In this document: piece by piece, positions 15,947 through 60,191 of the stretch
Layout of the letters: each line of letters starts with the position of its first letter
Position numbering within the stretch: the stretch's first letter is position 1
Made by a program: the position numbers and the translations under genes
Notes under the pieces: generated by a model
What the model was told of the DNA's origin: nothing
Databases searched by the model: none
The model's input: the letters and a program-made list of their open reading frames with translations, nothing else
Origin: a virus
Reading direction: 5' to 3' (one strand)
IMG/VR virus record: IMGVR_UViG_3300045988_097776
Length of the DNA stretch: 64,000 nucleotides

Positions 15947-16145
15947 CGCGGCCTCCTTTTATAAAAATGCCGTTGGGCAAAATTAAATAATTGTCTTATT
16001 TTATTTTTCAAATAAAGTGTGTTGAGTTTTTAATTCCTCGATCTTCTACTTTAACTCTTTGTTTTCTTTTATTACTTTTGCATATTCGCATGAATCATCG
16101 CATCTAATTGGATCATACTATTGATGCAATCTAAGATAACAATAA

Positions 16146-22496: not shown

Positions 22497-22853
22497 ATGA
22501 AAGCTAGTCGTGGAGAAATTAAAATTCATGAAATACTAGAGCAAAATGGCATAAACTTTAAAGAAGAGTATGAATTTCCTGGGTTAAAAGCGCCAAGCGG
22601 TAGACCACTTCGTTTTGATTTTGCTGTTTTTGATGATGATGGAAATCTTGATTTTTTAATTGAATATCAAGGAAAATAGCACTATTAGGCTGTAAGTAAA
22701 TTTGGTGGAAATAGAGGGTTATATCAATAGAAATATAATGATAATCAAAAGCGTAGATTTTGTGCCTTAAAAGGAATTACGCTTATAGAAGTTCCCTATA
22801 CCGAGGAAAATATCATCTCTTATGATTACTTAATGAGCAAGGCTGGATACTGA
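22497..22853 (+). mobile_element. small PD-(D/E)XK / Vsr-like endonuclease (free-standing homing-endonuclease-like gene between terminase and portal), about 118 aa
   Basis: Product MKASRGEIKIHEILEQNGINFKEEYEF...LRFDFAVFDDDGNLDFLIEYQGK[Q]HY...; family assignment tentative. The intergenic insertion site is typical of homing-endonuclease genes. Confidence 0.35.
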
Positions 22854-25780: not shown

Positions 25781-26470
25781 ATGGCTAAGAGTTCTAAAAG
25801 ATTAGGTAATGCTACTTTTGTCCAATATGGATATGGTCAAGTAGAACCAAACCATCTTTCCGCTCCAAGAAATGGTCAGGTATATGCCCAGCTTCCTGCT
25901 GCTAGCACAATCACCCTTCTTGAGAATGGTCAATTCGTAAAGTATGACTATGCTAAGGGTGTATGTGATTTTAGCACAGAGGCTACTTCTGGTGCTTGGA
26001 TGATGGTATTCAATGAGGTAAAAATTTATAGAGATCGTGAGACTGATGCCGATTTTGCTATGATTAAAGATAACTATAACGCTCGTGTTTATAGCCCAAT
26101 CGGACAGACCGTTTCTACACTCGCTACCATTAATGACTATACTGGTGAAGCTGTACGTGAAGGTAGTAACGTAGCATATAAAAAGAATATGGAAACATTT
26201 ACTTATCCAGCTTTGATGCCAGAAGGAACTAAAATGGTTCCACGTGTAATTAAGATTAGTATTGGTGATATTTGGACAACTAATACTATTAAGGCTGATG
26301 CCGGTTCACTTGCTGTTGGAGATCGTTTAAAGATTGGTACTGATGGTTATTTAACCGAGGATACTGAATCTTCTGCTAAGGGTGGAGATTTAGATCCTAT
26401 CTTTACAGTAGTAAAAGTATACACCATGCCCGATCTTCAACCCGGTGTAAAAGTACAGCGTGTAGGTTAA
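25781..26470 (+). CDS. capsid-associated protein (decoration or minor capsid protein), 229 aa, no TAG
   Basis: Lies between the scaffold and the major capsid gene. Ends with TAA and contains no TAG. Confidence 0.35.
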   Translation: MAKSSKRLGNATFVQYGYGQVEPNHLSAPRNGQVYAQLPAASTITLLENGQFVKYDYAKGVCDFSTEATSGAWMMVFNEVKIYRDRETDADFAMIKDNYNARVYSPIGQTVSTLATINDYTGEAVREGSNVAYKKNMETFTYPALMPEGTKMVPRVIKISIGDIWTTNTIKADAGSLAVGDRLKIGTDGYLTEDTESSAKGGDLDPIFTVVKVYTMPDLQPGVKVQRVG

Positions 26471-26489
26471 TTGGAAGGAGTGAAGAAGA

Positions 26490-27542
26490 ATGTTAGATAA
26501 AGCTAATTTACTTAGTTTAATGAAGACTGTCGCCAATGCAAATCCTTCTGGTACCTATAGCTATCAAGGAGAATCCTTTAGCTACGACGCTTTGAACACC
26601 ACTTTGCGCAATGAGTTAAATGAGCTTGTTGGCACAGATGAACTTTATAGAGAAAATAAACATACTCTATTCTCTTTAATTGAGCAAACTATGGATGAAG
26701 TTGTTCCTAATCGTTTACTCAATTCTTATGGCAATTTTGCCGAGATTAGAACTTTCGGACAGGGAGATAAACCTGTATTTACTCGTAGAACTGGACTTAC
26801 CCGTGCTAAGCAATTCATCACTCGTGTGGGACTTGCTGGCGTATACGAGACCTTTAAGCTCGGTTCTGAGAGCTTCGAAGTTGGTACAAGTGCTATCGGC
26901 GGAGCTGCTCGTATCGGATTCGAGGAGTTCCTCGACGGAAGAGTAAACTTCGCAGAACTTACTCAGATTGTAACTGAGGGTATGCAAGAGCTTATTTATA
27001 GAGAGATTGCTCAAGCTCTTATGGGTTCTATTAATCAGCTTCCCGCGGCAAACCGTTGTGCCGTTGCTGGTTTTGATGAAGCTACTATGGATTATCTTGT
27101 AAATACTGCTAGTGCTTATGGTCAGCCCACTATTTACTGTACTCGTGAGTTTGCAGTAAAGATGATTCCAGACAACGAGGCTTGGATTTCTGATAACATG
27201 AGAGATCAGTATTGGGGAACTGGATACCTTGCTAACTACAAGGGAACTAGAGTGGTAATTCTACCTCAAACCCTTGAGGATGAGACTAACTCTAGAAAGA
27301 TGATTGACCCTGGTTATGCTTGGGTTATCCCCGGTGGAGCAGATACTCGTCCTGTTAAAGTTGCTTTTGAGGGTACTACTCACGTGCGCGAGCGCGATGA
27401 TAACGACGACTGGTCTCGTGATATTCAGGTTTACCGCAAGGTCGGAGTTGGCGTAATGATGGCAAATAACATTTTCTCTTACGTTGATACTGAACTTCAA
27501 GGTGAGCTTGATAATACTAACCCAAATCCAAATAATGGTTAA
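26490..27542 (+). CDS. major capsid protein, 350 aa, no TAG
   Basis: Size, position after the scaffold, a strong terminator directly downstream, and complete absence of TAG codons (highly expressed). Confidence 0.55.
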   Translation: MLDKANLLSLMKTVANANPSGTYSYQGESFSYDALNTTLRNELNELVGTDELYRENKHTLFSLIEQTMDEVVPNRLLNSYGNFAEIRTFGQGDKPVFTRRTGLTRAKQFITRVGLAGVYETFKLGSESFEVGTSAIGGAARIGFEEFLDGRVNFAELTQIVTEGMQELIYREIAQALMGSINQLPAANRCAVAGFDEATMDYLVNTASAYGQPTIYCTREFAVKMIPDNEAWISDNMRDQYWGTGYLANYKGTRVVILPQTLEDETNSRKMIDPGYAWVIPGGADTRPVKVAFEGTTHVRERDDNDDWSRDIQVYRKVGVGVMMANNIFSYVDTELQGELDNTNPNPNNG

Positions 27543-27544
27543 TT

Positions 27545-27580
27545 AAAAGGGGATAGGGAAATATCCCTATCCCCTTTATT
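27545..27580 (+). terminator. rho-independent terminator after the capsid gene
   Basis: AGGGGATAGGGA-AAT-ATCCCTATCCCCT followed by a T-run. Confidence 0.7.
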
Positions 27581-27603
27581 TATTGAGAAAAAGGAGATAT
27601 AAT

Positions 27604-28140
27604 ATGAAAGATAAGTGTATTGTTTATAATAAAAGTGCGGGCCGCGCGGTATATAAACTGCCTGAGCTTGGTGTACGTCGTATGTTCTATCCAGGTGAGC
27701 ATAAAGAGATTAGTGTATCTGAGCTTGAAAAGTTGGTTCAAACACCCGGAGGCCGCAAGCTGATTTATAATTATCTATTAATTGATGATAAAGAAATTAT
27801 TGAATATCTTATTAATGGGAAAGTTGAACCAGAATATTGGTTAAAAGAGAAAGATATTGATTCGTGGATGCAGTCATGCTCTTTGGATGAATTCAAGGAT
27901 GCTCTTGATTTTGCCCCTGATGGGACAAAAGATTTGATTAAGGCTCACGCGGTTTCTCTTCCTTTGAATGATATTTCAAAGCGAGATGCGATAGAAAAAC
28001 AATTAGGTTTTAACGTTACTAAAGCGTTGGAATTAACCGCGGACGAAGGAAAAAATTCTAAAAATGAGGTTAAGCCTGTTAGAAGAGCATCGGTTGCAAG
28101 TGATGATACTCCAAAGCGTAGAGTAACTATATCCGAGTAA
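27604..28140 (+). CDS. hypothetical structural protein, about 178 aa
   Basis: AAAAGGAG RBS plus ATG at 27604; no TAG codons. Confidence 0.4.
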   Translation: MKDKCIVYNKSAGRAVYKLPELGVRRMFYPGEHKEISVSELEKLVQTPGGRKLIYNYLLIDDKEIIEYLINGKVEPEYWLKEKDIDSWMQSCSLDEFKDALDFAPDGTKDLIKAHAVSLPLNDISKRDAIEKQLGFNVTKALELTADEGKNSKNEVKPVRRASVASDDTPKRRVTISE

Positions 28141-31284: not shown

Positions 31285-32679
31285 ATGCGTTTTGGTATTC
31301 GTGAGATTTGCGATGTAGTGCTTCGTGCGAAGAGTTATCAAACCCTTGGTAATCGTAAGTTCTACAAAAATGAACCAGTTTTATATTTCGACACTTTAAG
31401 AACCTCTACTCTTGAGGGTGCTGCAACAACAGTATATGCGCAGGGCGGACGTGGATATTCTAGATTGATTGCTTGGGAAGGTGAGCGTACTCTAACCTTT
31501 ACAATGGAAGATGCTCTACTCTCTCCAGAAAGCTTCTCTATTCTTTCTGGTGCTGGCCTACTTGATGCAACAAAAGAAGCTCCTATCTATGTTCACCAGA
31601 CTTCTCAGATTGAAGTTGAGACTGCCAATACTATTATTGTTCCAGACAAGGCTTGCTGGAATGGATTTACTGACCATGATAATGAAATGTATCATCGTTC
31701 TGCCGACATCTTTGTGATGGTTTTAGGTGATGATGGTCAGGTTAATGCCGAGCCTTGTATTCCTGTTTCTGTAAGTTACACAGAAGATGGCAAAACAACT
31801 TTAACTTGTTATTCTCATGCGGGTGTACTTCCTGCGGGAACCATTGTTTTAGTTGACTACTATGTAAAACGTACCGGTGGAGCACAAATGATTGAAATTA
31901 CTGCTGATAAGTTTGGTGGTAACTATTATCTTGAGGCTTCAACTCTATTCCGTCGTGAGAGCGATGGCGTGGATATGCCTGCTGAATTTATCATTCCTAA
32001 CTGTAAAGTTCAGAGTAACTTCACATTCAGCATGGCAGCTAACGGAGATCCTTCTACCTTCACCTTTACAATGGATGCTTTCCCTGATTACACCAAGTTC
32101 GACCAAACCCATAAGGTATTGGCTGCAATTCAAGTAATTACTGATGAAAGCGGCGAGACCGAGGAAACTCGTGAGCCATGTTCTGAGAATGTAGGCACTT
32201 ATGAGAGCGAAGCTGCTGATGTGACTGTAAGTTTCGTATCTAATAGTGCTACAGCCGCAGAGCTTGATGTTACCGGTAATGTAACAGGAAAAGCTTATGA
32301 TACTGAGGCCTATGGCGATACTATCGCAGAAGCTGCTCAGATCAGCCTACAAATTCCAGTAGAGAGCGATAGCACCCAATATAATGTGGTAACTACAAAC
32401 CCAGCTTATGAGAAATACTTCTCTACAGACCCAAGAATTGAAGGTAATACAAAGACTCAAACCGTTAGTGGCGAAGAGTTGGCTCAAGGATTGCTTGTAA
32501 TTCTTACCAGCGAAGATCAGGCAACTCCTATTACCGCAAAGATTAATAAGATTAATGGTGATTTTGAAAAGAGTTATACCATTAACAACAAACTTAGCTT
32601 TGCTACATCTACCGCAGCAAAAGCTAAGACTAGCATTCGCAATAAGTTAGTCTCTGTCACCGAGGATGACGGAATTTAA
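31285..32679 (+). CDS. major tail protein (tube, or possibly sheath), 464 aa, no TAG
   Basis: GGAGG RBS. Large TAG-free gene followed by a strong terminator, located upstream of the chaperone and tape measure. Confidence 0.5.
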   Translation: MRFGIREICDVVLRAKSYQTLGNRKFYKNEPVLYFDTLRTSTLEGAATTVYAQGGRGYSRLIAWEGERTLTFTMEDALLSPESFSILSGAGLLDATKEAPIYVHQTSQIEVETANTIIVPDKACWNGFTDHDNEMYHRSADIFVMVLGDDGQVNAEPCIPVSVSYTEDGKTTLTCYSHAGVLPAGTIVLVDYYVKRTGGAQMIEITADKFGGNYYLEASTLFRRESDGVDMPAEFIIPNCKVQSNFTFSMAANGDPSTFTFTMDAFPDYTKFDQTHKVLAAIQVITDESGETEETREPCSENVGTYESEAADVTVSFVSNSATAAELDVTGNVTGKAYDTEAYGDTIAEAAQISLQIPVESDSTQYNVVTTNPAYEKYFSTDPRIEGNTKTQTVSGEELAQGLLVILTSEDQATPITAKINKINGDFEKSYTINNKLSFATSTAAKAKTSIRNKLVSVTEDDGI

Positions 32680-32685
32680 TCTAAA

Positions 32686-32722
32686 GGGAGGACTTAATGT
32701 CCTCCCTTTTTCTTTTTATAAG
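32686..32722 (+). terminator. rho-independent terminator
   Basis: AGGGAGGAC-TTAAT-GTCCTCCCT followed by TTTTCTTTTT. Confidence 0.7.
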
Positions 32723-32736: not shown

Positions 32737-34173
32737 ATGGATATTGATATTTATGATTATGTTTAGCGTTGGTCTATTAACTATATTGTATATCACAGTA
32801 GCCATTTGAGAGAATATGGCGACGTAGAATCAGCGAATACCTTATTCAGCGCATAGTATCAATAGGCAGTAAATAAAGCATAGACCGCGGGAATTGAGGC
32901 TTAGATCTCCTCAATTCAAGAATAGATGCAGCTAAAAGCGCCTTCCGCAGCCAGTGGATTAAAGATTCTAAGTGATCTAGAGATAGGAACCCTATTAGAC
33001 TCTACTCTTGATTAGATTGCCGCCGGTATTAATGAGGGTATTGAATTAGCTGGTGGATAGGTAGATTTTGAAAACTATAATACTATATTGCAATAGGTTG
33101 GAAGCTTTAATAACTTGTTATCAACTGGTACACCGGAAATATAGAGAGTGAATGATTTCTTTAGGTTACTTATATCAGCTTTAACGAAAGCGAATATGAT
33201 AAATGTTAATGTTCTTGATGCTTTAACATAGATTGGAAGATAGCTAATAGGAACTAGCTTTTAGATAGATTAGGCATAGCAAAGTTATGTTATGGCTGTT
33301 GGCAAAGGAGATATAAATATCGCAAAAGATGTAATAGATTCTTTAAACAGGGCTGTTACTCGTTTAAGTGAATAGGGATCAGTAAACTCTCGTTCTTTTG
33401 CTAATACTATTGCTTATATATTTAGAAGGGTTATTGGAAATTAGATTAGTTAGGCGATAGTTGCAGAGGGTATATCAATAGGAGTTAATACCGCGGATAG
33501 TATATTAGATAAGGTAATCGCGCAATCTGGTGGAAAATTGCGATGGGTTGATAAAGGATAGAATAATGTCTCTAAGTCTAAAGGTACTACAAATATATTT
33601 AATAATGATACCTTTAGTTTGCAAGTAACCAAGGGCAATCAGACTTTTAATATAGAGATAGGGACAAATGTAAATGCAAGATGGCAAAATAAGAAAATGT
33701 CTTAGAATAAAATTTCTGCTTCTTCAAGTATGAATGTTGGAGAATATTTTTCTGGTTAGCCAGAGAAGTATCTTGCTTATAATATGATTGCTCATAGATA
33801 TACTGGAGCTGATTTTGAAGAATCGTTTAATAATATACGGGCTTCTGTTGCAGCGTCCTTCTTTAATTAGTGGATTCAGTCTAGTGAGTTTAGTTCATAG
33901 AAGGGTCATTTAGGATAGTTTATTATAGTTAATGGTAGAGTATTTTCAATCTAGCGAATTATTAATAATATCTGTGATGATATTGTTAGAAATAGTGCTC
34001 ATGAAGTGGTTTCTATTGGTGGAGAAGGCGCTCTGGGTAATAAGTGGTATGGCAATTCTGGAGCAAACATATTAGATGCAATCACCCGTAGTAATATAGT
34101 CAATGGAGTTATAAATAAATTAACTATTGCAGCAACTTTAAATAATAATATACTATCTAAATACGCATATTAA
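32737..34173 (+). CDS. structural protein of unknown function, 478 aa, with about 30 in-frame TAG codons (over 6 percent of codons)
   Basis: GGAG RBS plus ATG at 32737. One frame stays open to TAA 34171 when TAG is read as a sense codon. The product is globular-looking (…IGTNVNARW[Q]NKKMS[Q]NKISASSSMNVGEYFSG[Q]PEKYLAYNMIAHRYTGADFEESF…). Its neighbours have zero TAG. Confidence 0.5.
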
Positions 34174-34236
34174 ACTTGACAATAGTTAATTTTTCTAGTA
34201 TAATAAAAATATAAATGAGATAAAGGAGATTTTACA

Positions 34237-34767
34237 ATGACTTTTAAAGATTTGGGGCTTGAGCCTAAAGTTAAATATACAGAAGTAAAGGTTGGAGCAG
34301 ATAAGATTTTGTCTGTGGCTAATTATCTTCCTATTGCTGATAAAACAAATCTTATTATGTTTGTCACTGATTTATCAATAGATGAGGCAACTGGCTGTTT
34401 TAGTCCAGTTAGAGTGGAGACCTATTTTGCTATTGCTATATGCAGATGGTATGGCGGAATTACTTTTGAGCCAGAAGATGTGCATGAAAATATCGCAAAA
34501 ACCTATGACACTCTTGAGACAAACGGTGTAATTGATGCAATTCGTGATATTATTCCGGTGGAGGAACTATCTTTTATTGAGGATTTAGTTAAGGATACTA
34601 TAAGCGATATTTCAAGATATAATAGTTCTGCGGCCGGCATTATTCAGATGATGAATAAAAATGCTTCTGGTCTTGATACATATATTACTGATATGCTAGA
34701 AAAGATTAAGAATGGTGAAAATCTTGAAACACTATCAGTAATTAAAGATGTGGTTGGAAAAGATTAA
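34237..34767 (+). CDS. tail assembly chaperone candidate, 176 aa, no TAG
   Basis: Acidic protein immediately upstream of the tape measure. Confidence 0.45.
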   Translation: MTFKDLGLEPKVKYTEVKVGADKILSVANYLPIADKTNLIMFVTDLSIDEATGCFSPVRVETYFAIAICRWYGGITFEPEDVHENIAKTYDTLETNGVIDAIRDIIPVEELSFIEDLVKDTISDISRYNSSAAGIIQMMNKNASGLDTYITDMLEKIKNGENLETLSVIKDVVGKD

Positions 34768-34802: not shown

Positions 34803-34838
34803 TAAAAGGCTCTTGAGAAGATATAATTCTCAAGAGCC
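34803..34838 (+). terminator. rho-independent terminator
   Basis: AGGCTCTTGAGA-AGATATAAT-TCTCAAGAGCCT followed by a T-rich stretch. Confidence 0.6.
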
Positions 34839-34877
34839 TTATTTGTTTTATCGTAGAGATAAAGGAGGAAAAGGACT

Positions 34878-37800
34878 GTGGCTAATAAAAGATTAAACTA
34901 TTAGATTGGGTTTACCGCTGACGCGAGTCAGCTAAAAACCTCTGTTAATGAAGTTATAAATAGTTTATAGAAATTAGGCAATTAGCCATCTATTTCTAGT
35001 GAACTTCAGTAGGCATCTTTGGCGGCCCTTGAATTGAGCCGTAATCTTTAGATGGCTACTAATGGAAATTCAGGTAAGTTAGATTTGACTGCTTTTAATG
35101 ATAGTTTAGTAAAAAGCGGAAAGACTTTAACAGACTATTATAATCAACTAAGCAAACTGGGAATTTAGGGGCAAGAAACATTCTTAAATCTTTCTCAGGC
35201 TATTATGGCGGCGGAAACTCCGTTAATCAGAACTAATAAGTTAATGTCTGATTTGTGGATTACAATGAAAAATACGGTTCGTTGGTAGATTACAGCAAGC
35301 ACTTTATAGGGTTTTATTGGCTCTTTAGAGACAGCTTATGGTTATGCAAAAGATTTAAATGAATCTCTGACAAACATTCGTATAGTTACTGAAAATTCTG
35401 CCGAGGATATGGCTGTTTTTGCTAAGTAGGCTAACGAAGCAGCTAAGGCATTGAGTACAACTACAGTAGATTATACTGACGCAGCTCTGATTTACTATCA
35501 GTAGGGCCTTACTGAGTAGGAAGTTTTAGATAGAACTGAAACTACTATAAAAATGGCAAACGCCGCGGGTGTTAGCGCTTAGACTGCATCTGACTAGTTA
35601 ACTGCGGTATGGAATAACTTCTATGATGGAAGTAAAAGTCTTGAGTATTATGCAGACGTCATGGTGCGCTTAGGTGCAGATACTGCATCAAGCTCTGATG
35701 AAATTTCAGAAGGTATCTAGCAGTTTGCCGCAGTTGCAGAGACGGTAGGTTTGAGTTATGAGTATGCCGCGTCTGCGCTTGCTACTGTTACTGCTACAAC
35801 TCGTGAATCTGCGAATACTGTAGGTACTGCATTTAGAACATTATTTGCACGTATTCAGGGCTTAAATCTTGGAGAAACACTTGATGATGGAACTACTCTA
35901 AATAAATATTCTTAGGCTCTTGATAAAGTTGGAATTAACATCTTTGACGTTAATGGAGAAATCAAGACTATGGATACTTTATTAGATGAAATGGGAGAGA
36001 AATGGGAAACTCTATCTAATGATCAATAGATTGCATTAGCACAGACTGTAGCTGGAGTACGTCAATATACTCGTCTTATTGCTCTTATGGATAACTGGGA
36101 TTTCTTCTAGGAAAATTTGGAGAGTTCTTATGGAGCAGAAGGATCTCTACAAGAACAAGCAGATATTTATGCTGAATCTTGGGAGGCGGCAAGAGATAGA
36201 GTAAGAGCATCCGCGGAAGATATTTATGATAGTTTAATAAATCCTGATTTTTATATTGGGGTAGATGATGTTCTTAGTCCTATTTTAAGTACAACTGCTG
36301 ATATTATTGATGGTTTAGGCGGAATGTCTGGCGTTTTAGCAACAACTGCTTTACTGATGAATAAGGCTTTTGGTGATAAGATTGCGCAAGGAATGAGAGA
36401 TATTGCTTCTAATCTTGGTATTATCGGATAGAGAGAAAAGGATAGAGCGCAAACTTTGAGAACTGAAGCCGCATAGATGGCTGATATTATCGCGAAATCC
36501 GCACTTGATAATACTATTTAGGGATAGATGGTAAATACTCAAGCTTAGATTGTTTAGCTTGAAGGAGAAGCGTCCGCTGCGGCCACACAACTATCTGAGC
36601 GCTAGGCTGGTATTTTACAACAAGATTTAGATAGAGTAAAGGTTTTATAGACATAGGTTAATTTAATTGGGTAGTAGGTTAGCAAATCAGATGAACTTAT
36701 TACAGCTTATACAAATAGTTTGTCTGAGCGTTTAGTTCCCAATAAAAAATGGAAGGATAATCTACTATCGGCGCTTGTGTTAGAAGATGAAAATAAATTT
36801 TCTTTTTATGAGGACATAGAAACAGAAATTCTCTATAGTTCAAAGACAAATTAGCAAGCCCTTTAGAGTTTAATTGACAAATTAAAAGTGGCGAGCGTAA
36901 GTCTTTCTAAGTTTTAGCAAGTATAGAAATTAGTTGGTTCTGGAACCAATGAAATCTCTCAAGAAACTATTAATTTAGTAAGAAGCCTAAATCTTTTTGA
37001 AGGTGCTCAAGATGCAACAAATTAGGAGATAATAGAATATCTTACTACCTCTTAGTAGTTTTAGGAAGCATTAAAGGGGGCAGAATCAGACGTTGCTGCA
37101 TTAAATAGAGTTATTACTTCTTTAGGTGATGGTTCTGTTAAATTTAAAAATGATCTAAGTGGTCTTGTAGCAGCTTTTAAGAATAATGAAATTAGTGTTG
37201 AGGCTTTTAGATAGGGATTAGAATTATTACAGTAGAAAACAAAAGAAATTAGTGAGGGGTTAAAGAATAACAGATATGCTACTTTAGACTGGGCTGAGAC
37301 ATTGGTTAAAGTAGGAACCACTTTATCGCAAGTTACAATGGGAATGACAAGTATTAATTCCATGTTCTCTACTTTTACAAATTCTGTGAAAGAGGGAGAG
37401 TTTACTGTTGAAGATTTTACAGTTATTCTTACTAACTTTGGAATGTTATTACCAACAATCTCTACCTTGTTTAAAAAGCAGGCATTACAAAATAGTTTAA
37501 CTGCAATATCGTATTTAACAGTTGGAGCTTCAGCTAAAACTGCGGCTGCTGGTATTACTACTGTTGGTGCGGCTATCTCAACTGCTTTACCACTTATTGG
37601 GTTAATCACTTTGGGAGTAACCTTACTTGTTAATGTTATTTCTCTCATTATTGTTACGGAAGAAGAGGCTAGAGAAAAAATATCTAGTGCTACCTAGGCT
37701 TATGAGGATTAGAAATCTGCATTAGAATCTTTAAATTCTGAATTATAGACAACGAAAGATAGAATAGAAGAATTAAATAATTAGGATTCTTTAAGTATAG

Positions 37801-40800
37801 TCGAACAAGAAGAATTAGAAAAACTTAAATAGGCAGAATCTTCTTTGTAGAGATAGGTTGAGTTACAAGAGAAGTTAACAGAAGAAGCGCAAAAAGCCTA
37901 GGCAAAAACTATCGAAGAGAATTATGATAAATCTACTAAGAGTTTGGCAGGAGGACCAGATTTAACCTAGTGGAGAAGTTGGAATGAATACAATGGAGAC
38001 TAGGACTGGTTTAAAGAGTTAGAATAGAGCATGGATTTAAATGATCCAAATGCTCAATTTGTACTTGAATAGAATAGATATACTTATAAAGATTAGTACG
38101 TAGATGCAGACACTTGGTTTAATAGTATTACTTAGGGCCTTGATAAAAATTCTGATGCCTATCGTGATTACTTAGTAGAGTATCAAGATTGGGTTACTCA
38201 AAATGAATAGATTACGGCACAGTGGGTAACTGACAATTCTGAAGCTATATAGCAAGCAGAAGATGATTATGCTGCATATATTAAATCTGTTACTGACGGG
38301 GTTATTGAGTATAATCCAGAAATGATAGCTTCAATGCAGGAGCAGTTATCTCTTATTCGTAAAAATCTTTATGGCAGTCAAAGTGAATATGAAGAGGTTA
38401 TATTAAAACCAATTTTAGATAACCAATCAGTTAAATAGATTTCTACTTAGCTTTATAGCACTTTGGCTAGTAGTGATATTAGTGCAGCCTCTGGTTTGAT
38501 AACAGAATCCATTAAAAATGAATTAATGTTAGCTGGAGTCAGCGTAGATGAGTTTTTAACTTTTGTAGATAGCAGAGTAGATGAAGCAAAGGAAAAAGTA
38601 GAAAGTAAATTTAGTGATTTTGATTTTGATTCTCTATCAAATGAGGATTGGGAAATCCTTATGGATGTCAATATAGATAATTTTGATGCGGTTGAAGAAT
38701 TATAGGAATTTTTAGATAATTATAAAATTAATGAAATAAATATAAATGTAAAGGGAATAGACGACTTAAAATCTATATTGGAAGAATTAAATAATAGTTA
38801 GAGTGCTCTTGAATCTGCCTTATAGTCATATAAGGATCAAGAAGGCTATCTAACCATGGATCAAGTTCAAGAACTCATTAATGCAGATGAAAGATATGCT
38901 TAGTATATTGTTAAAGTTGGAGATGCGTATAAACTAACAAATTAGTCTCTTTAGACATTTTTAGATTCTGAACGACAAGAAGAGCAAATTCTTGATGCTA
39001 CAATAGAATCTATGAAAGAAAAATATGGGGTAAATACTGATTATCTCTAGAATTATATTAATATGTGGGATGAATTAGTATCGCGAGCCAGTGATTCAAA
39101 TGCAATAAATGATTATACGTTTACAAGTGAAACTGATGTAGAATTGTTTAAAGAGAGAACATAGGCCCTTAGTGATAATGCGAAAGCGTATCAGGAGGGG
39201 GCAATATCTGCCCAAGAATATTTTGATACGATTAATAAAAGATTAAGTAATATAAATGCAGGCTTTCATAGATTAAACGAAGAAATTGACGATAATATAG
39301 AAGAAACTGATTTATATGAAGCTACTTTGGTCGCTGCAACCGGGTCTATAGGGGATGGACTGATAGATTTAAATAAAAAGTTTAAATCTGGAACCATCAA
39401 TATGGATGATTACTATGAGGGAACAATCGCTGCCACGAAAGCATTAATTACGGCTTAGTCTAAATTAAATTAGAATATTACAAAAAATACAGACGGAGTT
39501 TGGGAACTCAGAGATGGAGTAGATCAAACTACAATTTCTGAGGAAGAATATGCCAGAACCATGTCTGATATATCTAATTTAAATACTTGGGAAAAACAAG
39601 TGAGCGATGCCCAAGACATGATGGGAATTGTAAATAGTTTAGTAGATAATTACGATTACTTATTAAACTATGCTGATAGCTTTGGAGCGATAGATTTTAC
39701 CATTGATAATAATTTCGATACTACTGCGACAGAATTTTAGGCAATGGTATCAAGTATTGGACAATAGCTCGTAGGACTAGAATAGACTAATAACGAATCT
39801 TATAAAAGGATTCTCTAGGGTGTTCTTGATTAGGGAATAACGCTAGCAAATGGACTAGATACAAGCGCCGATGCTTTAATGCAAGCAATGTCCACTGATG
39901 CTAGTATCGCTGGAGCCGTTATTAATTCTACTATGTCCGAGAGTGCTAATACAATTAGCTCAACTTCATAGGCGGCTGGGGCTGTTCTAACAGCACTAGG
40001 AGATTTAATTTCTAATTTTGAATATGATTTAGGTTTTACTCCATATGTAAAATCATGGGGAAAATTATAGATAGATGATTGGCTAGCTGGCAAAGCGGAT
40101 CTTCCTTTTGAGCTTCCCACTCTAGGATTAAAAATTTCCGGCGAGGGCGGAGATGCTATTGGTAATTTTACTAATGCTCTAAAAGAAGCTGGTTCATATT
40201 TATCTTCTTAGGGTACGGGATCTGGATAGAATGGTATTTTTGATTATGGTTAGGAGCCATTTGCATTTGATCCTGATGGAGCATTAGATCCGAATAGAAT
40301 AGCAACAGACAATATTAGAAATAAAGATTCTGGCGGAGATAACGAAGGTACAAAATATGATGCCGAAGATGAAAAAACTCTTGAAGATATAGAAGATAGA
40401 TACCATGAAATAACTCGTGAGATTGAGAATTAGAATAATTTATTAGATGATATTGGTAATAATATAGATAGAGCATATGGAGCGAAGAAATTATAGGCTT
40501 ATTAGAAAGAGCTTCAAGAGTTAGAAAAACAGCAAGCTAATTATAATAAGATGCTTGATGAGGCTGAGACCTATCTTGAGAAAGATAGATCAGACCTTCA
40601 AGGATTATTCAACAATTCTCTTACTTTTGATGAAAATGGAGAAATTGAAGGTTATCAAGACGTTCTTCAATCTATTGTTGATGATTATAATAATAACTTC
40701 TTAACCGATTACAACGCTTTCTTATTAATGTTTAGCAGTCTTACTAAAGATGAATAGGAGGCTAGATAGGCAGAATATGATAGTTGGCAATTACAAAAAG

Positions 40801-43577
40801 AAGTTGCTGATGAATTATTCTAGGCTCGTTAGGACGCTTTAGCTCAATATGAAGAAACTCTTGACAAGATTCAAGATGTAAAAGATGAGCAAGAAGAGCT
40901 AGAAAGAAATATTGCAGATAATAGATTAAATTAGATTGAATATAAACTTGAAGTTGCGATAGATATAAAAGATGCTAAAGATGCGGTTAATGAGCTAACA
41001 AGACAAATAGCAGAATCTTTTGGTGATGAGCTAACTCATGGAATGGAAGTCGCTCGTATTGATAAAAACAGTATGAACGAGAACATTGAAATCATCAAGA
41101 GCTATGAAGAAGCCCTTAAAAGTTATCAGGAAGAATTAGCTAATGCCACAGATGCGACTAATATTGATGAGATTGTAAGTAAGTTATCTGACTTACAAGG
41201 TAAAATGATTTCTACCGCAGAGGCTTTGCTTGATTGGGTAGAAGGTCTTGAAGAAATGCTACCAGATGCATTAGATGCCGCGTCAGAAAGATTTGCAGCT
41301 TTTACTGATTAGCTTGACCATAATGAATCCGTTCTAGGACTTATCAAAGAACTATATGCTCTTTAGGGAGTTACATATAAGACTGAGGAAGGATTTGAGT
41401 AGCTTCAGGAAGTAAGCGAAGAAACTATGAAGGCTCAGGTCGCCAATGCGCAGCTAAATAAACAATGGTACGATGGAATCCGTCAAGAACTATTGGAAGC
41501 TCAAGCTGCACTAGACGCATTAGGCGGAGATGAAACGGATCCTGCATATGATGGTTTAAAAGCTAATAGAGATGCTCTACTAGAAGAATTTAATGAAGCA
41601 CAAGAGGCTATGTTAAGTTCCGCGCAAGCTGCTATGGAGACTGCTTAGGAGATGTATACTCAAGCTATTGAAAGAGCAGTATATGAATTTGGATAGGCTG
41701 TTTCTGGTGGAGTAGGATTAGATCTACTACAAGACAAATTCGATCATTATATCGAACAAGAGGATAGATATTTAGATAAAGTAAATGAAGCGTATGAGGT
41801 ATCTTCTTGGTATAATAAACTACAACAGGATATTGATAAGGCTACTAACTCTAAGATGAAAGATTAGTTAAAATAGCTACAAGAGGAAATTGATATACGT
41901 AGAGAGAACAATACCTTATCTGAATACGATTTAGAAATTCTCGAAGCTAAGTATAATGTTCTTTAGGCTTAGATGGCACTTGAAGATGCTCAAAATGCGA
42001 AAAATCAACTTAGACTAGTGAGAGATAGTCAAGGTAACTGGAATTATCAATACACCGCAGATGCGAGCCAGATAGCTGACGCAGAATAGAATTTGCTTGA
42101 TGCGGAGAATGAGTGGTATAATATAGCAAAGCAGTAGGTAGAGGATGTTACAGGAGAGATTATTTCTACTTGGCAAGAATGTCAAGATAAGATAAAAGAA
42201 ATCTATTCTGATATGACCTTGACTGATGAAGAAAGATCTGCCCGCGCGCAAGAAATCTATTCTTATTATACGCAGAAGGTTAAGGACCTAGAGAACGAAA
42301 AATAGATCGCTATTAAGGATATGACCGAAGCCGGCAATAAAGCTTTAATTGATATGGCTATTGTTGCGGGAGACGAGGTAAGTGACCTAACTGGAATTAC
42401 AAGTCAAGAAATTCAAGATATTATAGCTAACTCTGGCTCTAGCATTATTGATTTGTTACTATCAGATAACGAGTAGATTCAAGATATAGTAGGAAGTAAT
42501 ACAAAACTTATTGACCTATTTGATAACGTATTTGCGAAAGACTTAGCGAATATGACCGCTAATGCCGGCAACTTTGAAGAGTTTTTATCTAATGCAATGG
42601 ATGAAGCTAGCGGAGCGATGGAGGATTATCAAACTACTGTTTCTGGAGTAGCCGATTAGACTGGAACAAGTCTCGATGATTTAAAAGATTATATCGACGA
42701 TGTTTCAACTTCTACTGATTTGTGCTCTGAGGCTGGATCAAATGCCGTTACTTAGATGTTAGAATAGATAAGCACTATTCAAGATTTAAGTCAAGAGTAT
42801 TTAGATATGGCCGATTCAGTCAGAGAATATATAAGAGCGCTTGAAGAAGCCGCTAGAGCTGCTGGTAGCACAATAGAAAGTGCAGGAAGTATAGATAAAG
42901 ATGACTTACCTTCTTCTGATTCAAGTCAATCTTCTGATACTGATAAAGGTAACTCAGGTAATAGTGGTAGTGGATCTTCCAGTAGTGGAACTGGAGGAGG
43001 TAATGGAATCCCCGAAGTAGGAGATGAAGTTATTTATACTGGTGGAACTTACTATCATGATTCTTATGGCACTGATCCTGCTGGTAGACGCGGTCCAGGT
43101 AAAAAGGTTAGAATAACAAACATAGCTAAGGGTAGACCTTATCCAATCCATGTACAGTCCAATAATTCCGCTTATGGATGGCTAAAAGAAAGTTAGATAA
43201 GTGGCTTCGATACTGGAGGATATACTGGAGAATTTGATAATGCTAAATTAGCTTTCTTACATGAAAAAGAGTTAGTTTTAAATCAAGAGGATACGAAAAA
43301 TATCTTGGCGGCGGTCTCTGCTATGAGAGCCTTTGGACCTAGTTTTATAGCCTCTATTGAGAAAACTCTTGACGGGAACGCACTATCTATTTCTAGTATT
43401 ATGGCATCTAGATTGGGAACTAATACCTAGATTGCGCCGACAGATAATGTGGTTTAGCCAAATATAAATATTGAACGAGTTGAATTCCCCAATGCGACAT
43501 CTTCTGATGAAATTCAAGATGCTATTCGTAGTTTGGCGGATGATGCTACTCAATGGGCGAATAGAAGAAAAGAATAA
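34878..43577 (+). CDS. tail tape measure protein, about 2899 aa, many tens of in-frame TAG
   Basis: All listed ORF fragments in this span (36117, 37302, 38463, 40551, 41043, 41427, 42807) are in frame 0 and join across TAGs. It carries TMP motifs (…SEGI[Q]QFAAVAETVGLSYEYAASALATVTATTRESANTVGTAFRTLFARIQGL…, …[Q]TVAGVR[Q]YTRLIALMDNWD…) and the canonical C-terminus …SGFDTGGYTGEFDNAKLAFLHEKELVLN[Q]EDT…. Confidence 0.85.
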
Positions 43578-43628: not shown

Positions 43629-46600
43629 ATGAATACAGCTTCTGAATCTATCTTTTAGACAATAGATATTCTTGTTGATAAAGCACTATCAAAATTAACT
43701 TATGATAAAACTGTTTCAGCAGAGATTAATAGTATAGTTAATTTGGATACTGGAGAATATAAAGTTAAATATTCTGGTAATATAGTATCTGCTTTTTCCG
43801 ATGATGTAAAGAAACAATATAAAGTGGGAGATACCGTATACGTTACCATACCTCAAGACGATTTGTCAGCAAGGAAAAGAATAGTATGTAAAACAAGTGA
43901 ATAGTCGCTATCATATGGAGAGATGTTGTCCCTATCCAATTCAATAATAGAGAAAAGTCCAACCTTTGATACTATGTATGAATATGATAAGAGTGCGGAA
44001 AGGGGCGTTGTAGCTGGAGCACCTGCCGATAGTGATCTAAGTCAATAGATTATTTATGATGGTGCTGAAGAGGGTTATCATGGATTATTCCAACAATACG
44101 CAAACAATAATGAACTTATTAGAATCAAGGCTTCTTTCTTGACCACCTTCCACTGTGAGCATACAAAAGGAAATTATGGTTTAGATATATAGTTTTTCAC
44201 AAAAAGTGGAGATATAGTTTCTTACAAACTAGATCTAAGCTCTTTTAATGGAGATCCATATCGCTTTTAGGTCTATAGCCCGCAATCTGTAGTCATAAAA
44301 ACTCAAAAGAATTATTTAACTGGACTTAAACAGATTAAATTATTTGAAGAAAACTTTGTCTATGATCGTTATGTAGAATCTGGTGTAGTTACAGATAAAG
44401 AGAATAGAACTGTACCTAATATTTTTGTAAAGGATATAGAGATTCAGTTTGTTGAATAGAAAGATTTAACTGATAATTTATATTACTTAGATATATCAAC
44501 CCCGCGAGGAAACTCATTCACTAACGAGATCTCTTCTCTTGATTTGGTTGGTAGATTGATTTATTAGGGCGATAATATTATGGACGAAGAAACCTGTGAA
44601 TGTAAATGGTTTGAGAGGGATGTAAGCGTTTTACTAGGGAGCGATTTGTATGACAAAAATGCTGGGGTAGGATGGGCTCCCGTCACAGCGTCCGAGAGCA
44701 ATACGCTGACACTTAATGCTGAATAGGTTGAGTATCAAAAGTAGTATAAATTGATCGTTGTATATAATGATAGCGTGACATTAAGCGCAGAAACAACGAT
44801 TTATAACTTAACAAGTGACTATAGTTTTGAGTTAGATCAAACTACGGTTGGTGAAGATATTATCATTCAAATTTAGAACAATGTAGATGATACTGTTTTA
44901 ATTGGAGATTGGTATATGCTTTATCCAGATGGAAGTTATACCGCAGTAGGGTTAAAACAAAATTCTATCACTGTAACTAATTTACTGCTATATTCTTCTG
45001 TTACTTTTGTTTGCGGCGTTTATAATAAAGAGCATAGCTAGATTATTTGTGTATTAGAACATCTTGTCACAAATAGTTCTTCCGAGGAAGATGTTACAAT
45101 CACTTATAATGGAGAAGATACCTTTAGATATGATGCAAACGGAGATATAACAATAGAAGATGCTGAGAAGGAACGAACTCTTTAGGTTGTTTTAACTTGG
45201 AAAGATGGAGTTGGAACTTCTTATAAGGTTGAATGGATTGGCCCAGATGGGAAAAATATCACTAATTCAAGATATAATCCTAGTGAATCTATGATAGAAA
45301 ATCTTTGGGTTGACAATAGCAATATTTTACATTATACTATTAAATAGAAGTATAAAGTTAATTTTAATAATAATACTATCTTAGTTCGTATAGTTACTAT
45401 GGATGAATAGAGATACTCTTTCTAGAAAGAGATTTTATTCTTAAAAGATGGAGATTAGGGTACTAATGGTACGACCTATGTTACTGCAATTCGTCCTTTT
45501 GATGAAAATACTGGTCTAAAACTTTCTGGCCTGGTTCCTCTTATCTATAGGGATAACTCATGGCAAAATACTTTACCTTTAAGATGTTACGTATATAAAG
45601 ATGGAGAGTTAATTAACGACAATGGAAACTATACATTGACCTATAAATGGACAGGGGTTAATGTTAATATTGGGGATAGCACCTTGGATGACCGCAAGAT
45701 AATTAGTGGAGATAATCAACTGGTATCTACTCCCATTGGCGGTTATGTGAAAGTACAAGTTACTATTAATGATAATAAGAATAATAGAACTTATGATATT
45801 TATAGTAATTATCCTATTGATGTCGCTGTTAATTTTTCTGATCAAGAAATAGAGAGTATTGATATTAGCTCTATTCCTTCTTATATTAAATATACTGCTT
45901 CTGGAGTAAATCCCTAGTTCTATAGTAATAATATTGAATTTATTGTCAACGAAGTTGATTAGAGCAAGAATATTACTTCTATTATAGAAGAAATACTAAC
46001 AATAGAAGAATAGGATGGTCTTTACTATTTGGAACCAGCTTCTAGCTTTATCTTTGAAGATAATAGCATCGCATTATTAAAGTGTGAGTATGAAGGGAAA
46101 TATATTTATCATCCAATCATCTTGTATCTTGACACCTATGGAAATGAATTAATCAATGGGTGGGATGGTACATAGCTTGAAATTGATGAAGAAAATGGTC
46201 AGTATATTTTGGCACCATAGATAGGCGCAGGAGAAAAAGATAGCTTTAATCGTTTTACTGGTGTAGTAATGGGGAAAGATAGTGTCTAGTCTAAAATTGG
46301 TTTGTATGGATATAAAGCAGGAGTTAATACCTTTGGTCTAATGGAAGATGGTACAGCCTTCTTTGGATCCAAAACTGGTGGTGGGTAGATTATTATTGAT
46401 GGTACCTCTGCCGAAATTTATGGAGGAGGAAATTCTTCTGGTGAAGGTGGAGACGCATCCAATGGAATGACTATTACACTAGCAGATCTTAAAGCTGATG
46501 GCTCTACAGAGGCTATTAAAATCGGTGGCGGTGTTTTCACAGTAAAGTATAATGGTACTGTAAATGCGGCCAATGCTGAAATTTCAGGAACTATTTATGC

Positions 46601-47549
46601 TTCTTCCGGCAAGATAGGTGGTACAAAAACTGGGTCTAATGGTTGGACTATTGAAACCAATAGACTGTATAGCGGTTCTGGTTCAACAAGAGTCGAATTG
46701 AATAGCCAGTCGCCTACTAATACATCTACACCTACAAATAATAATGATTTTGCTATGTGGGCTGGTAGTGCAACTGCTTCAAGCGCTAAGTTTTCTGTCT
46801 CTAAAGGTGGATTAATTACTGCTAAATAGGGAAATATTGGAGGATGGATTCTTTCTTCTAATAAACTTACTAGCGATAATTACAGAACCGGTATAGCAAG
46901 TTCAGGAACTTATCGTTTCTGGGTTGGAGCTAGTTCTAGCAGCACAGCAGATAGACCTGTTTTCTCTGGTTCTTCTTATTTTTATGTTGCCAGTTCAGGT
47001 GAGATGTAGTGTAAAAATGCAACGATTAATGGCTCTATTTATGCAGACGATGGCGAAATCGGCGGGTGGACTATTAGTCCAAGTAGAATCTCTGGAGGCG
47101 GAACCACTCTATATTCAAATGGTAGGATTGTATGTGAGGATTTTGAATCTGATAACGTAGATATTAGTGGAGATATTAATGCGACTACTTTAACCTGTGA
47201 TAATGGCGAAATCGGCGGGTGGACTATTAGTGAAGATGGATTAGAGAATGGTACTACAAGATTGTTTAACGGCTTAGTATAGACAGAATAGGTGCAAATA
47301 TATTATAATGATCATGGTCGCTGGAATACTTATCTTGGATTTTTAGGATATGTACCAGGTAGAGATGATGATGGTGTTACTGACAATATTGGTATTAGGA
47401 CACTTGATTAGGGATAGAGTATTATTCTTTAGTCTGCAAGAAATATAGCTTTAAATGCTGAGGGAGCAGGTATCTGGGTAAATGCAGAAAATTTCAACAT
47501 GAATGTACCAAAATCTGGATAGAAAGGTATTTATGCCTAGTTTGCATAA
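43629..47549 (+). CDS. large tail/baseplate structural protein, about 1300 aa
   Basis: One frame stays open from ATG 43629 to TAA 47547 when read through TAGs. The C-terminal part carries repeated G-x-I-G-G-W-x-I motifs typical of phage distal-tail or fiber proteins. Confidence 0.45.
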
Positions 47550-57319: not shown

Positions 57320-57959
57320 AGTTTAATTCAATAGCTTTTAATTTATCTATTGAATCAGCTTCGAATATCTAAGTTTTATATTCTTGCATTAAATGATATT
57401 TGGGATATACCACATTTGAAATAGCTAAACTTAGAGCGGATAATTGCTCTAAACTCCATGGCACACATTCTTCGTGTCGAGCGTGCCACTCAAGCGTAGG
57501 ATTTTCTACTTCAGCCGCGAGAGCGACTTGATATTGATTGAGATTTAAGCTAATCTCAGACTGGTCCTCCTACGTAATTCCATATTCTTTTCCATCAACC
57601 CAAGTTAGTGGGTGGGTAGCAAGATACTCTGCGAATAGTTTCTTGTTTTCCTCTTGTTTGTCATACTTTGCCTAATCTAAATCAGAAGTGAATGTTCCAT
57701 CTTCTTGATTATATATTGAATAATTAGGAGTAACATCTGATGGAATTGTTTCTATCTCTAATACTTTTACAGCATTAGATTGATTTAATACATCGGCTTT
57801 AATTAGAGTATAATGTGTATCTCCATTTGAGCCGATAACCCCAGTTCCCTCTTCTTCCTCGCAGGCAACGACAATACCATTTGAGGATTGCAGTTTAATG
57901 TAACGTGCTTCTGAAAGAATATCAACTACTACATTCTCTCTATTTAATAGAATATACAT
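57297..57959 (-). CDS. DUF4376-like protein (tail-fiber assembly/chaperone-like), about 220 aa, 4 in-frame TAG
   Basis: The listed 95-aa ORF continues through TAGs (…ATHPLTWVDGKEYGIT[Q]ED[Q]SEISLNLN[Q]Y…). Family assignment is from memory and tentative. Confidence 0.3.
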
Positions 57960-58135
57960 TACTTTATTTCAACTCCTTTAAATAATGAACGAAAATAATT
58001 GTCCATATCTTGAATTATATAAAAACAAGTTCCTTTAGAAATATGTGCCCTCCAACCTTGATAGGATTTCTAAATTTCATCTGTTGAAATTTTACCCTCT
58101 AACCATAGCGCTTGCATTTTCTTTAACTTTCTGCG

Positions 58136-59176
58136 CTAATGAGCCACTTTCTTTTTAAAAGGAATTTGTATTATATGATTAGTGTCTGTGAGATAAAAGT
58201 TCCACTTTAAGTATTTTAATGGAGCGTGACGTTTGCCGTCCGCATGAATAGGAGAGATTCTAGTAATAGTAGTCTTTTTCTTATTCATCTTTAATCCTTG
58301 CTTATTTAAGCGAACTTCTATTCTCTTTTCACATTCGGCTAAGTATTGACTGTCATTGTGGAATAAATATAAATCATCCATATAACGACCATAATACTTA
58401 ATATGTAACTCTTCTTTGATGAAGTGGTCAATTTCGTTCAATGCTAGCAATGCGAATAATTGTGATGTTTGACTTCCTAATCCAAGACTTTTATTATCAT
58501 ATTCATAGTATTTGCGGCCAGGCTTAAAATTAGTGGTACTAATTCTCGTGTATTTGTGCCGTTTACTAATATAATAATCTTTTCCTGGTATGGGAGAGGA
58601 ATCTTTTGTTAGCTTAAAAGAAAATGTATCTATTAAATAACAGCATAGTTGATAAATTCTTTTATCTTTTATCAAACGTTTAGCCGCTTTCTTTAAAGAT
58701 TTATGGTCAATAGAATCAAAATATTTTTGAATATCAATTCTTAACCCATAAAAATCTTTTCCTAATCCATATTCTCTATGAGCTTGTTGAAGATGTTTCT
58801 TTACTCTTTTTAAAGCAAAGTCTATTCCTTTTCCTCTTAAAGTAGCACAATTATCGTAGATAAATCTAGGAGTTAATTCTGGTAATAAAACTTGTTCACA
58901 TAACGCATTTTGTACCAGTCTGTCGTTGATATGACACGCTCTTATATCTCTTGGTTTGCCTCGTTCGATTATCGAAAAACAACTAAACACAAGCTATTCG
59001 TATTCACACGCTCGCAGATCAGCTTCTGTTTTTAAAATTGTTTCTATCCTATTCTCTTCAAAATTAATTGTACTATCTTTCCATCGAACGTTTCGGCATA
59101 CCTTATAAGACGCATCATACATAGTGTCAAAACTACAAAAACGCTCGAAAGTAGTATCTTGATTTATTTCAGACAT
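58136..59176 (-). CDS. diversity-generating retroelement (DGR) reverse transcriptase, 346 aa, 1 in-frame TAG
   Basis: The two listed ORFs (59176-58994 and 58990-58136) are one frame joined by TAG 58994-58996. RT motifs FDSIDH and YMDD (GRYMDDLYLF). The DGR-specific motif LGLGSQTSQ (I/LGxxxSQ) replaces the group-II-intron QGxxxSP. AAGGAG RBS 6 nt before the ATG. Confidence 0.85.
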
Positions 59177-59485
59177 ACTTTCTCCTTATCATGTAGCTAT
59201 AGTAGTAGCTACTCGAGCTCCACGTCTACAGTCTTACTTTATCCACTTTTTCAGTGAAATGGTTAAGTTCTCCTTAGATGAAAAGGCAGATCTACCTATA
59301 GTATATTATTCGATAGTTGTAGAGCAAAGCTCTTTAATGGTCTCTCAATCTCTTCCCCACATAGTGAGTGCAATCCAGAGTAAACCTTAATTAGATGGAT
59401 AATAATATACTCCGGGGTACTATTTAGGCGTTGCTCGTTTGCGCTGCTCCGCAGCTTAACTCGCAACATGATAGCTCCATCTAAT
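59177..59485 (-). ncRNA. DGR spacer region between TR and the RT (expected to be transcribed with TR as the TR-Sp template/primer RNA)
   Basis: About 310-nt non-coding interval between TR and the RT start. Its role is inferred from DGR architecture, not from the sequence. Confidence 0.4.
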
Positions 59486-59585
59486 CCGGCGCGAGCCCGT
59501 TGCTGTTGTTGTAGTTGTTGTTGTTCGCAGATCCATCGTTGTTGACATTGCAAACGTTGTTCGAGTTGTTGTAGTTACGGGACCG
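59486..59585 (-). repeat. DGR template repeat (TR), 100 bp
   Basis: Identical to 60209-60308 except at 17 positions, all of which are adenines on the minus (coding) strand of this copy. Reads as AAC-rich codons (RSRNYNNSNNVCNVNNDGSANNNNYNNSNGLAP). Confidence 0.9.
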
Positions 59586-59615
59586 AAAGATACAGAACTT
59601 AACCGCAGAAAAATA

Positions 59616-60110: not shown

Positions 60111-60191
60111 TTAAAATTTCCCTCACTTGAATATATAATTTTTTTATTGGACAATTTAACCTTAACTGTCCCGAATTGTTATTTTGCTGTA

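Follow-up and report, generated by a model that had tools for sequence, protein, structure and literature searches.

The window analysed here, a 64-kb stretch of viral DNA (IMG/VR record IMGVR_UViG_3300045988_097776), carries on its plus strand a gene for a tail tape measure protein (TMP) at 34878..43577. The gene occupies exactly 8700 bases in one frame, from a GTG start at 34878 to a TAA stop at 43575-43577, and comprises 2899 codons plus the stop. The frame contains 103 TAG codons, read as glutamine, no TGA and no internal TAA. It lies in a block of late genes ordered terminase, portal, capsid, tube, tape measure and distal tail. We interpret the span as one undivided tape measure gene from a large phage with a non-contractile tail, whose late genes use genetic code 15 and whose tail would be ∼425-458 nm long, and we assign this interpretation a probability of about 0.88.

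Reading frame and genetic code

The span 34878-43577 is one gene in one frame. In its two other frames, TAA and TGA together make up 4.4% and 11.8% of the codons, and at such rates a run of 2899 codons free of both would arise by chance with a probability of ∼1e-57 or less. The initial annotation had described a single open reading frame (ORF) of 2899 aa under code 15, and translation with table 15 confirmed it, with no internal TAA or TGA. A Shine-Dalgarno sequence, AAAGGAGG, is located at 34861..34868 on the plus strand, with the GTG start 9 nt downstream. The N-terminus, MANKRLNY.IGFTAD, agrees with the starts of related proteins (MAK(R/Q)LN...), and this conservation supports the GTG start.

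Glutamine is encoded in the TMP gene by 77 CAA, 23 CAG and 103 TAG codons, so that half of it comes from TAG, much as had been claimed. The identity of TAG was assessed by masking the TAG positions and aligning the TMP with 120 database proteins homologous to its N-terminal part. Glutamine was the commonest residue opposite TAG (27%, against a background of 6.6%), and near-invariant glutamine columns lie over TAG at aa 137, 209, 240 and 384. In the alignment with a TAG-free relative (L014; L-numbers denote related loci or contigs), glutamine occupied 26 of 94 aligned TAG positions. The effect of reading TAG as sense extends beyond the TMP: frames of 100 codons then add up to 27379 codons instead of 11379 and resolve into a tidy head-to-tail series of genes, and the plus-strand late block at 17.7-56.8 kb likewise opens into long genes only with TAG as sense. 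TAG occurs in 22 of 27 late genes and terminates none of them. Judged from these alignments and frames, TAG codes for glutamine in the late genes of the window phage (genetic code 15). The same assignment was made for the gut phage phAss-1, whose genome encodes three glutamine-type suppressor tRNAs (PMC10607447).

An alternative is that the host reads TAG as a stop, which would make the span either a row of small genes or a pseudogene in decay. Read with the standard code, it does split into plus-strand ORFs of at most 131 aa, and callers using that code yield many small ORFs. We regard this possibility as barely credible in view of the ∼1e-57 chance of the open frame, the existence of a full-length TAG-free homologue, the glutamine residues opposite TAG, and the opening of the whole module when TAG is sense. 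Full-length TMP requires 103 successive readthroughs of TAG. At 0.99 per codon, 0.36 of the ribosomes would finish (0.99^103), and at 0.95 only 0.005 (0.95^103); reassignment of TAG must therefore be all but complete while the gene is being expressed.

Family membership, protein anatomy and the virion module

The TMP matches PF10145 over aa 186-393 (E=1.7e-28; 100.3 bits, cutoff 33.2) and TIGR01760, the TP901 tape-measure model, over aa 146-450 (125.9 bits, cutoff 28.8). By these profile matches the gene product is a TP901-type tail tape measure protein. The initial annotation had also called it a tape measure protein, and the family matches, the synteny and an end-to-end alignment with L014 all support that assignment.

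Conservation along the TMP is highest in the TP901-type domain (35313..36227, plus strand; aa 146-450, its PF10145 core spanning aa 186-393), where identity over aa 200-400 is 94-96% to L007 and L008 and 72% to L014. Tape-measure motifs had been placed in the N-terminal third; the domain is indeed there, but it is confined to the first sixth. Further along, a hydrophobic segment resembling a membrane helix, the sole one in the TMP, lies at 37542..37652 (plus strand; aa 889-925), where Kyte-Doolittle windows of 19 residues score 1.6-2.5. The central ruler region (37755..42887, plus strand; aa 960-2670) is proline-poor, helix-periodic and of unique sequence, is the part swapped between relatives, and is interrupted by a Gly/Pro-rich island at 40035-40382 on the same strand (aa ∼1720-1835). 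Over the whole TMP, 44% of 56-aa windows exceed the 95% shuffle level at a period of 3.5-3.67, against 5% expected. Proline makes up 1.0% and lysine 5.2% of the protein, and the residues enriched in the central region are Leu, Ala, Glu, Asp, Ser and Gln. The periodicity and the low proline content suggest an extended, mostly alpha-helical protein.

The centre had been described as a low-complexity coiled coil rich in Glu, Lys and Gln. Its helical periodicity and its richness in Glu and Gln hold, but at 5.2% it is not rich in lysine. Nor is it of low complexity, since its mean 40-aa entropy, 3.59 bits, compares with 3.54-3.83 bits in the other late proteins; only two low-entropy windows occur. 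Neither tandem DNA repeats nor internal protein repeats were found in the TMP with Tandem Repeats Finder and self-BLAST, and with no repeats detected, a recent duplication was dropped as the source of its length.

The one strongly low-complexity stretch is a Ser/Gly-rich linker at 42888..43022 (plus strand; aa 2671-2715), with a 40-aa entropy of 2.67 bits. It leads into a small module at 43023..43214 (plus strand; aa ∼2716-2779), which AlphaFold2 predicts to be a beta-barrel with a pLDDT of 87-96 when supplied with an alignment of 34 sequences; a single-sequence prediction of the last 304 aa had been uninformative (pLDDT 41) and was repeated with the alignment. Foldseek returned weak matches of the barrel to SH3/Tudor folds, the best at E=6e-3. 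Because none reached E<=1e-3, the assignment of an SH3/Tudor-like fold is tentative. No significant match emerged when the C-terminal alignment was run as a profile against the PDB. At the position of the barrel, some relatives (loci L034, L048, L017 and L024, C-terminal 240 aa) carry other modules; in the alignment scanned, NlpC/P60 was matched in one member (E=2.8e-20) and CW_7 repeats in two. The modules just before the conserved C-terminus appear from their sequences to be interchangeable among relatives; in the window TMP, domain scans detected no enzymatic domain.

The protein ends in a conserved region at 43215..43574 (plus strand; aa 2780-2899) with the pattern TGGYTG..KLA.LHEKELVLN..DT.NIL ... 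FPN..D..EI...L.N.A.QYA.RK. Its invariant columns hold in alignments of 16 and of 34 sequences, including Enterococcus phage VRE9_3. The GGYTGEF...LHEKELVLN signature named in the initial annotation as the very end of the protein is present, but starts at aa 2780 (GGYTGEF) and aa 2794 (LHEKELVLN), ∼105-120 residues before the end.

The mechanism by which tape measure proteins act is established for lambda gpH, TP901-1, SPP1 and T5. By analogy, with the conserved C-terminal region as their anchor, a few copies of the mostly helical TMP would project from the tail-tip complex, and tube hexamers would polymerise around them and halt at the N-terminal end, so that protein length would set tail length. 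At infection the TMP would be ejected, and the hydrophobic segment at aa 889-925, together with the SH3-like module of wall-binding type, may help DNA to cross the Gram-positive envelope.

The genes upstream of the TMP encode a terminase-like protein, a portal (phrog_2739), a capsid-type protein (phrog_4088), a tail tube protein (phrog_2729) and a small protein of phrog_30570; downstream of it lie large tail genes. Four window proteins directly match SPbeta YonG, YonF, YonE and YomI in phmmer searches. L003, a contig with 98.6% identical flanks, has neighbouring genes with precomputed Pfam assignments to YonD, YonB, YomW, YomV and YomU_Tube. By these matches the virion module is collinear with that of SPbeta (YonG, YonF, YonE, YonB, YomW, YomV, YomU, YomI), as a distant relative, the members lacking a phmmer match being placed through the Pfam assignments on L003.

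The tail tube gene (31285..32679, plus strand) encodes 464 aa and is free of TAG; it matches phrog_2729 at E=3.9e-56, and its orthologue on L003 carries the precomputed YomU_Tube domain (PF27173). Immediately upstream of the TMP gene lies a gene for a 176-aa protein of phrog_30570 (34237..34767, plus strand), also free of TAG. A gene of the same family sits between the tube and TMP genes in VRE9_3, and the position of the 176-aa gene suggests a putative tail assembly chaperone. Downstream, the first distal-tail gene (43629..47549, plus strand) encodes 1306 aa with 32 TAG codons and is so named by position, having no family match.

Several features between the tube and TMP genes may bear on expression. 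Terminator-like hairpins occur just after the tube gene (32683-32709) and at 34806..34840 on the plus strand, the latter with a 14-bp stem followed by a T-run and located 37 nt before the TMP start. The 116-nt intergenic sequence before the TMP folds at -31.7 kcal/mol (z=-5.6). A perfect match to a TTGACA-17-TATAAT promoter (34176-34204) precedes the 176-aa gene. The hairpins and the promoter match would fit weaker expression of the low-copy TMP than of the tube protein.

Between the tube gene and the chaperone-like gene lies a gene for a 478-aa protein (32737-34173). With 25 TAG codons (5.2 per 100) it is among the most TAG-dense genes of the module. It has no match in Pfam, NCBIfam or PHROG and homologues in only 6 of 38 relatives.

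Relatives of the tape measure gene and predicted tail length

A single TMP frame was found at all 42 related loci from IMG/VR, with lengths of 2754-3236 codons; 38 of the 42 are rich in TAG (36-116 codons), and five further loci from metagenome-assembled genomes are alike where complete. The lengths fall into classes of ∼2760, ∼2900 and 3100-3240 aa. The related contigs are mostly ∼100-200 kb, and the nearest neighbours of the window are the uncultured contigs L007 and L012, at 82.5% identity, and L003, 98.6% identical but with a replaced segment in its TMP gene. L014 encodes an uninterrupted TMP of 2871 aa in the standard code, without TAG, which aligns with aa 4-2898 of the window TMP in one collinear segment at 35.7% identity. 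Three other relatives (L013, L043 and L026), with TMPs of ∼2950-3110 aa, also lack internal TAG when read from their true start. At one further locus (L004, 2295-10832; GCA_016852305.1, JAEIGA010000642.1), a TMP frame of 2845 codons has two TAG codons, 26 and 805, and is therefore reported by the gene caller as proteins of 776 aa and 2040 aa. Together with L004, the relatives with 0, 36, 54-66 and 80-116 TAG codons suggest graded use of TAG within the clade.

The sequence of the gene is exchanged more freely than its length. The L008 TMP is 96-98% identical to that of the window at aa 200-400 and 2200-2600, and only ∼20% identical at aa 600-1800. Outside that mosaic zone (36600-40300 in the window) identity is 83-98%, and the L008 protein, at 2908 aa, differs in total length by 9 residues. 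In L003, a divergent 5.4-kb allele replaces the 5' part of the gene, with 5423 nt against 5439 nt. From these comparisons the TMP gene is a mosaic whose length is kept in classes while its sequence is swapped, as would be expected if selection acts on length.

We used two relatives with measured tails to calibrate length. The TMP of Lactococcus phage PhiL47 has 3275 aa for a tail of 480 nm, or 0.147 nm per residue, and that of Enterocloster phage PMBT24 has 1508 aa for a tail of 238 nm, or 0.158 nm per residue. Applied to 2899 residues, these values predict a tail of ∼425-458 nm. Both the length classes and the calibration fit the idea that TMP length sets tail length. If the tube rings have the pitch of those of SPR, a phage related to SPbeta (44.0 Å), the tail would consist of ∼97-104 hexameric rings, with ∼30 TMP residues per ring. 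No measurement of the SPbeta tail was found in the literature searched, and SPbeta is absent from the calibration. The initial annotation had estimated ∼0.4 micrometres at ∼0.15 nm per residue; as a prediction, this agrees well with both calibrating phages.

A tail far shorter than 0.4 micrometres would result if much of the TMP were non-ruler cargo or were processed away, at far less than 0.15 nm per residue. Candidates for such cargo are the hydrophobic segment and two non-helical islands (aa ∼1720-1835 and ∼2671-2779), and relatives carry enzymatic or wall-binding modules. These parts, however, total less than ∼10% of the residues; PhiL47 and PMBT24 have such parts as well, and yet give 0.147-0.158 nm per residue; and the protein keeps to narrow length classes despite replacement of its sequence, as a ruler would. 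We consider a much shorter tail unlikely.

Scaling taken from siphoviruses would be misplaced if the tail were of the contractile, myovirus type. The sequence evidence points away from this: no late protein longer than 300 aa matched a sheath family, the tube protein belongs to the family of the siphoviruses SPbeta and SPR, PMBT24 is a siphovirus, and VRE9_3 has no annotated sheath. The only large unassigned gene near the tube gene, that of the 478-aa protein, was considered as a sheath candidate and rejected, being TAG-dense and having homologues in only 6 of the 38 relatives. A contractile tail thus seems very improbable, and a siphovirus-type tail of the predicted length remains our preferred interpretation.

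Some points count against this interpretation. A published table lists the Enterococcus phages EF1 and EF5 as Myoviridae, without micrographs (PMC6435515), which is the one observation in favour of a contractile tail, a label unsupported by the gene content; no micrographs of the EF1, VRE9 or H1 phages were found in the literature searched. The family link of the tube protein rests on profile matches, and a sequence search of the PDB with it gave no match, the solved SPR tube included. ARAGORN and Rfam found no RNA gene in the 64-kb window, suppressor tRNAs included, the window being part of a genome that is probably >100 kb. In the closest contig, L003 (Logan SRR32733136, 9662-18360), the TMP lies in two overlapping frames with a switch near 11800-11842, which could reflect chimeric assembly, a sequencing error or a true frameshift. 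Finally, the predicted tail of ∼0.43-0.46 micrometres is an extrapolation from genes, no virion having been observed, and it assumes that the non-ruler share of the protein (hydrophobic segment, Gly/Pro island, Ser/Gly linker and beta module) is as in the calibrating phages.

The initial annotation had considered the TMP unusually long and its tail among the longest. Most siphovirus tails measure 50-200 nm, and that of Thermus phage P74-26 nearly 1 micrometre (PMC10034513). Phages 949 and Tsamsa have tails of 500 nm and 440 nm. Beside the 42 relatives with TMPs of 2754-3236 aa, the Phassvirus proteins of 3149-3209 aa, PhiL47 with 3275 aa, and the tail of P74-26, that description is overstated: the predicted tail exceeds those of most siphoviruses in length but is usual for its lineage, and sets no record. 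P74-26 is also a siphovirus with an extreme tail set by its TMP, ∼2x the length predicted here, but it belongs to an unrelated lineage and has a trimeric, two-domain tube protein.

Among known phages, the window module belongs by sequence to the same broad group as Phassvirus, Enterococcus phages EF1 and VRE9, and PMBT24, with the SPbeta module as a distant relative. The Phassvirus phages (phAss-1 OQ749652, BK046881 and BK025033) are likewise gut phages that read TAG as glutamine, with genomes of ∼133-136 kb and one very long TMP ORF (PMC10607447). Their TMPs have 3149-3209 aa, with 110 TAG codons in phAss-1 (PMC10607447), and resemble the window TMP in their N-terminal domain and their conserved C-terminus. 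The window TMP is ∼250-310 aa shorter and only 29% identical to them over the N-terminal ∼480 aa. Members of the proposed genus, the phAss-1 group, have ∼80-86% nucleotide identity, and a megablast search with the TMP gene against 50,697 phage records, phAss-1 included, gave no match. The 29% identity and the missing megablast match place the window phage outside Phassvirus.

VRE9_3 has the same order of PHROG families from the terminase to the TMP, including a homing endonuclease gene between terminase and portal, and its corresponding protein of 2673 aa is annotated as a tape measure. VRE9_3, EF1, EF5 and H1 have cultured hosts and keep the C-terminal motif; they differ from the window phage in using the standard code, with no internal TAG, and are ∼21-29% identical. 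In the EF1 and EF5 records (MF001358.1 and MF001361.1) the TMP is annotated as 'cobalt-zinc-cadmium resistance protein'. PMBT24, a relative of the window phage, is a siphovirus by electron microscopy.

YomI of SPbeta (2285 aa) has an N-terminal domain homologous to that of the window TMP (phmmer E=4e-26) and serves a long non-contractile tail. Several records call it a transglycosylase, unlike the window TMP with its lack of a detected enzymatic domain, and SPbeta, a temperate phage of Bacillus, reads the standard code, in contrast to the TAG-recoded window phage. The Lactococcus phages PhiL47 and 949 also have very long TMPs, and their N-terminal domain is a remote homologue at 23.5% identity. 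These TMPs are longer and in the standard code; the phages belong to the genus Audreyjarvisvirus, and PhiL47 has an additional tail fibre of 280 nm.

Related contigs were also found in metagenome-assembled genomes labelled Oscillospiraceae, Clostridia, Clostridium sp. and 'Mollicutes' (L049-L055), one of them 149 kb long and 90% identical in the tape-measure domain. This binning gives a weak hint of a host among the Clostridia.

Proteins of this kind are poorly represented in databases. We searched 5.8 billion proteins using the first 968 and the last 190 residues of the TMP as queries. All matches to the C-terminal query were fragments of 100-330 aa, and every one named by its source had an uninformative name such as 'hypothetical protein'. 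In the GenBank record of phAss-1, the TMP gene is displayed as a string of tiny ORFs. The warning in the initial annotation that homology-based annotation would be fragile here was well founded. The window adds a well-delimited, very long TMP gene in a TAG-recoded gut phage, exposes how poorly standard annotation serves such genes, and provides a test case for code-aware gene calling. Its predicted tail of ∼0.43-0.46 micrometres can be checked once a member of the clade is cultured. The comparison within the clade shows length classes kept amid sequence exchange, and TAG kept out of the highest-copy virion genes. Existing knowledge of tape measures and of recoding is left unchanged by this TMP.

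TAG distribution and other features of the window

The TAG codon is unevenly distributed among the late genes. The capsid-type gene with two neighbouring head genes (25781-28140) and the tube gene (31285-32679) contain none, and the other late genes of the window hold 0.8-5.6 TAG per 100 codons. In the 38 TAG-rich relatives, the high-copy genes have 0.02-0.11 TAG per 100 codons (capsid gene 0.04, tube gene 0.07), against 1.2-4.0 in other late genes and 2.9 in the TMP gene. The recoded codon is thus almost completely excluded from the highest-copy virion genes across the clade. The TAG-free 176-aa gene at 34237-34767 obeys this pattern less strictly. Such sparing is compatible either with translational economy or with gating by recoding.

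Gating would add to the interpretation given above and would not replace it. TAG would be incompletely reassigned and TAG-dense genes held back, so that early in infection truncated N-terminal products would be made, and full-length TMP and tails would appear only at near-complete suppression. The contrast between 103 TAG codons in the TMP gene and none in the capsid and tube genes, a pattern kept in the 38 relatives, would fit this scheme, as would the yield calculation, which demands >98-99% readthrough per codon. Gating by recoding has also been proposed for other recoded phages (cited in PMC10607447). Avoidance of TAG in high-copy genes can, however, be explained by translational efficiency or codon bias with no need of regulation, and we regard gating as possible but on balance doubtful. 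Somewhat more speculative still is the idea that TAG is sorted by virion copy number, the low-copy TMP having about 100 of these codons in its gene. Synthesis of the ruler would then depend more than any other step on a complete code switch, and tail assembly would be gated translationally, independent of transcription.

The late block is headed by a sigma-factor-like gene at 18522-19568 (phrog_5767, E=2.7e-38) with a zinc-finger/HNH-like C-terminal tail and 9 TAG codons. Two genes resembling those of homing endonucleases were identified at 17737-18450 and 22497-22853, each with TAG codons. One of them is of the GIY-YIG type and lies upstream of the packaging genes; the other belongs to phrog_9084 and occupies the gap between terminase and portal, as in VRE9_3.

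Auxiliary genes on the minus strand lie outside the virion block, at 9205-9714, 15182-15958 and 16505-17335. Their products are an AbrB/MazE-type DNA-binding protein, a protein resembling microbial-type poly(ADP-ribose) glycohydrolase, and a FolD-type methylene-tetrahydrofolate dehydrogenase/cyclohydrolase, the last with 7 TAG codons.

A diversity-generating retroelement (DGR) is located on the minus strand at 57959-62042. Its reverse transcriptase gene (PF00078, E=1.3e-16) spans 57959-59185 and its template repeat 59483-59585. The target gene, with Big_3 and DUF6273 domains, occupies 60192-62042 and contains the variable repeat (60206-60308) at its 3' end; all of these are on the minus strand. 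The two repeats are 83% identical, and the core mismatches all fall at adenines of the template.

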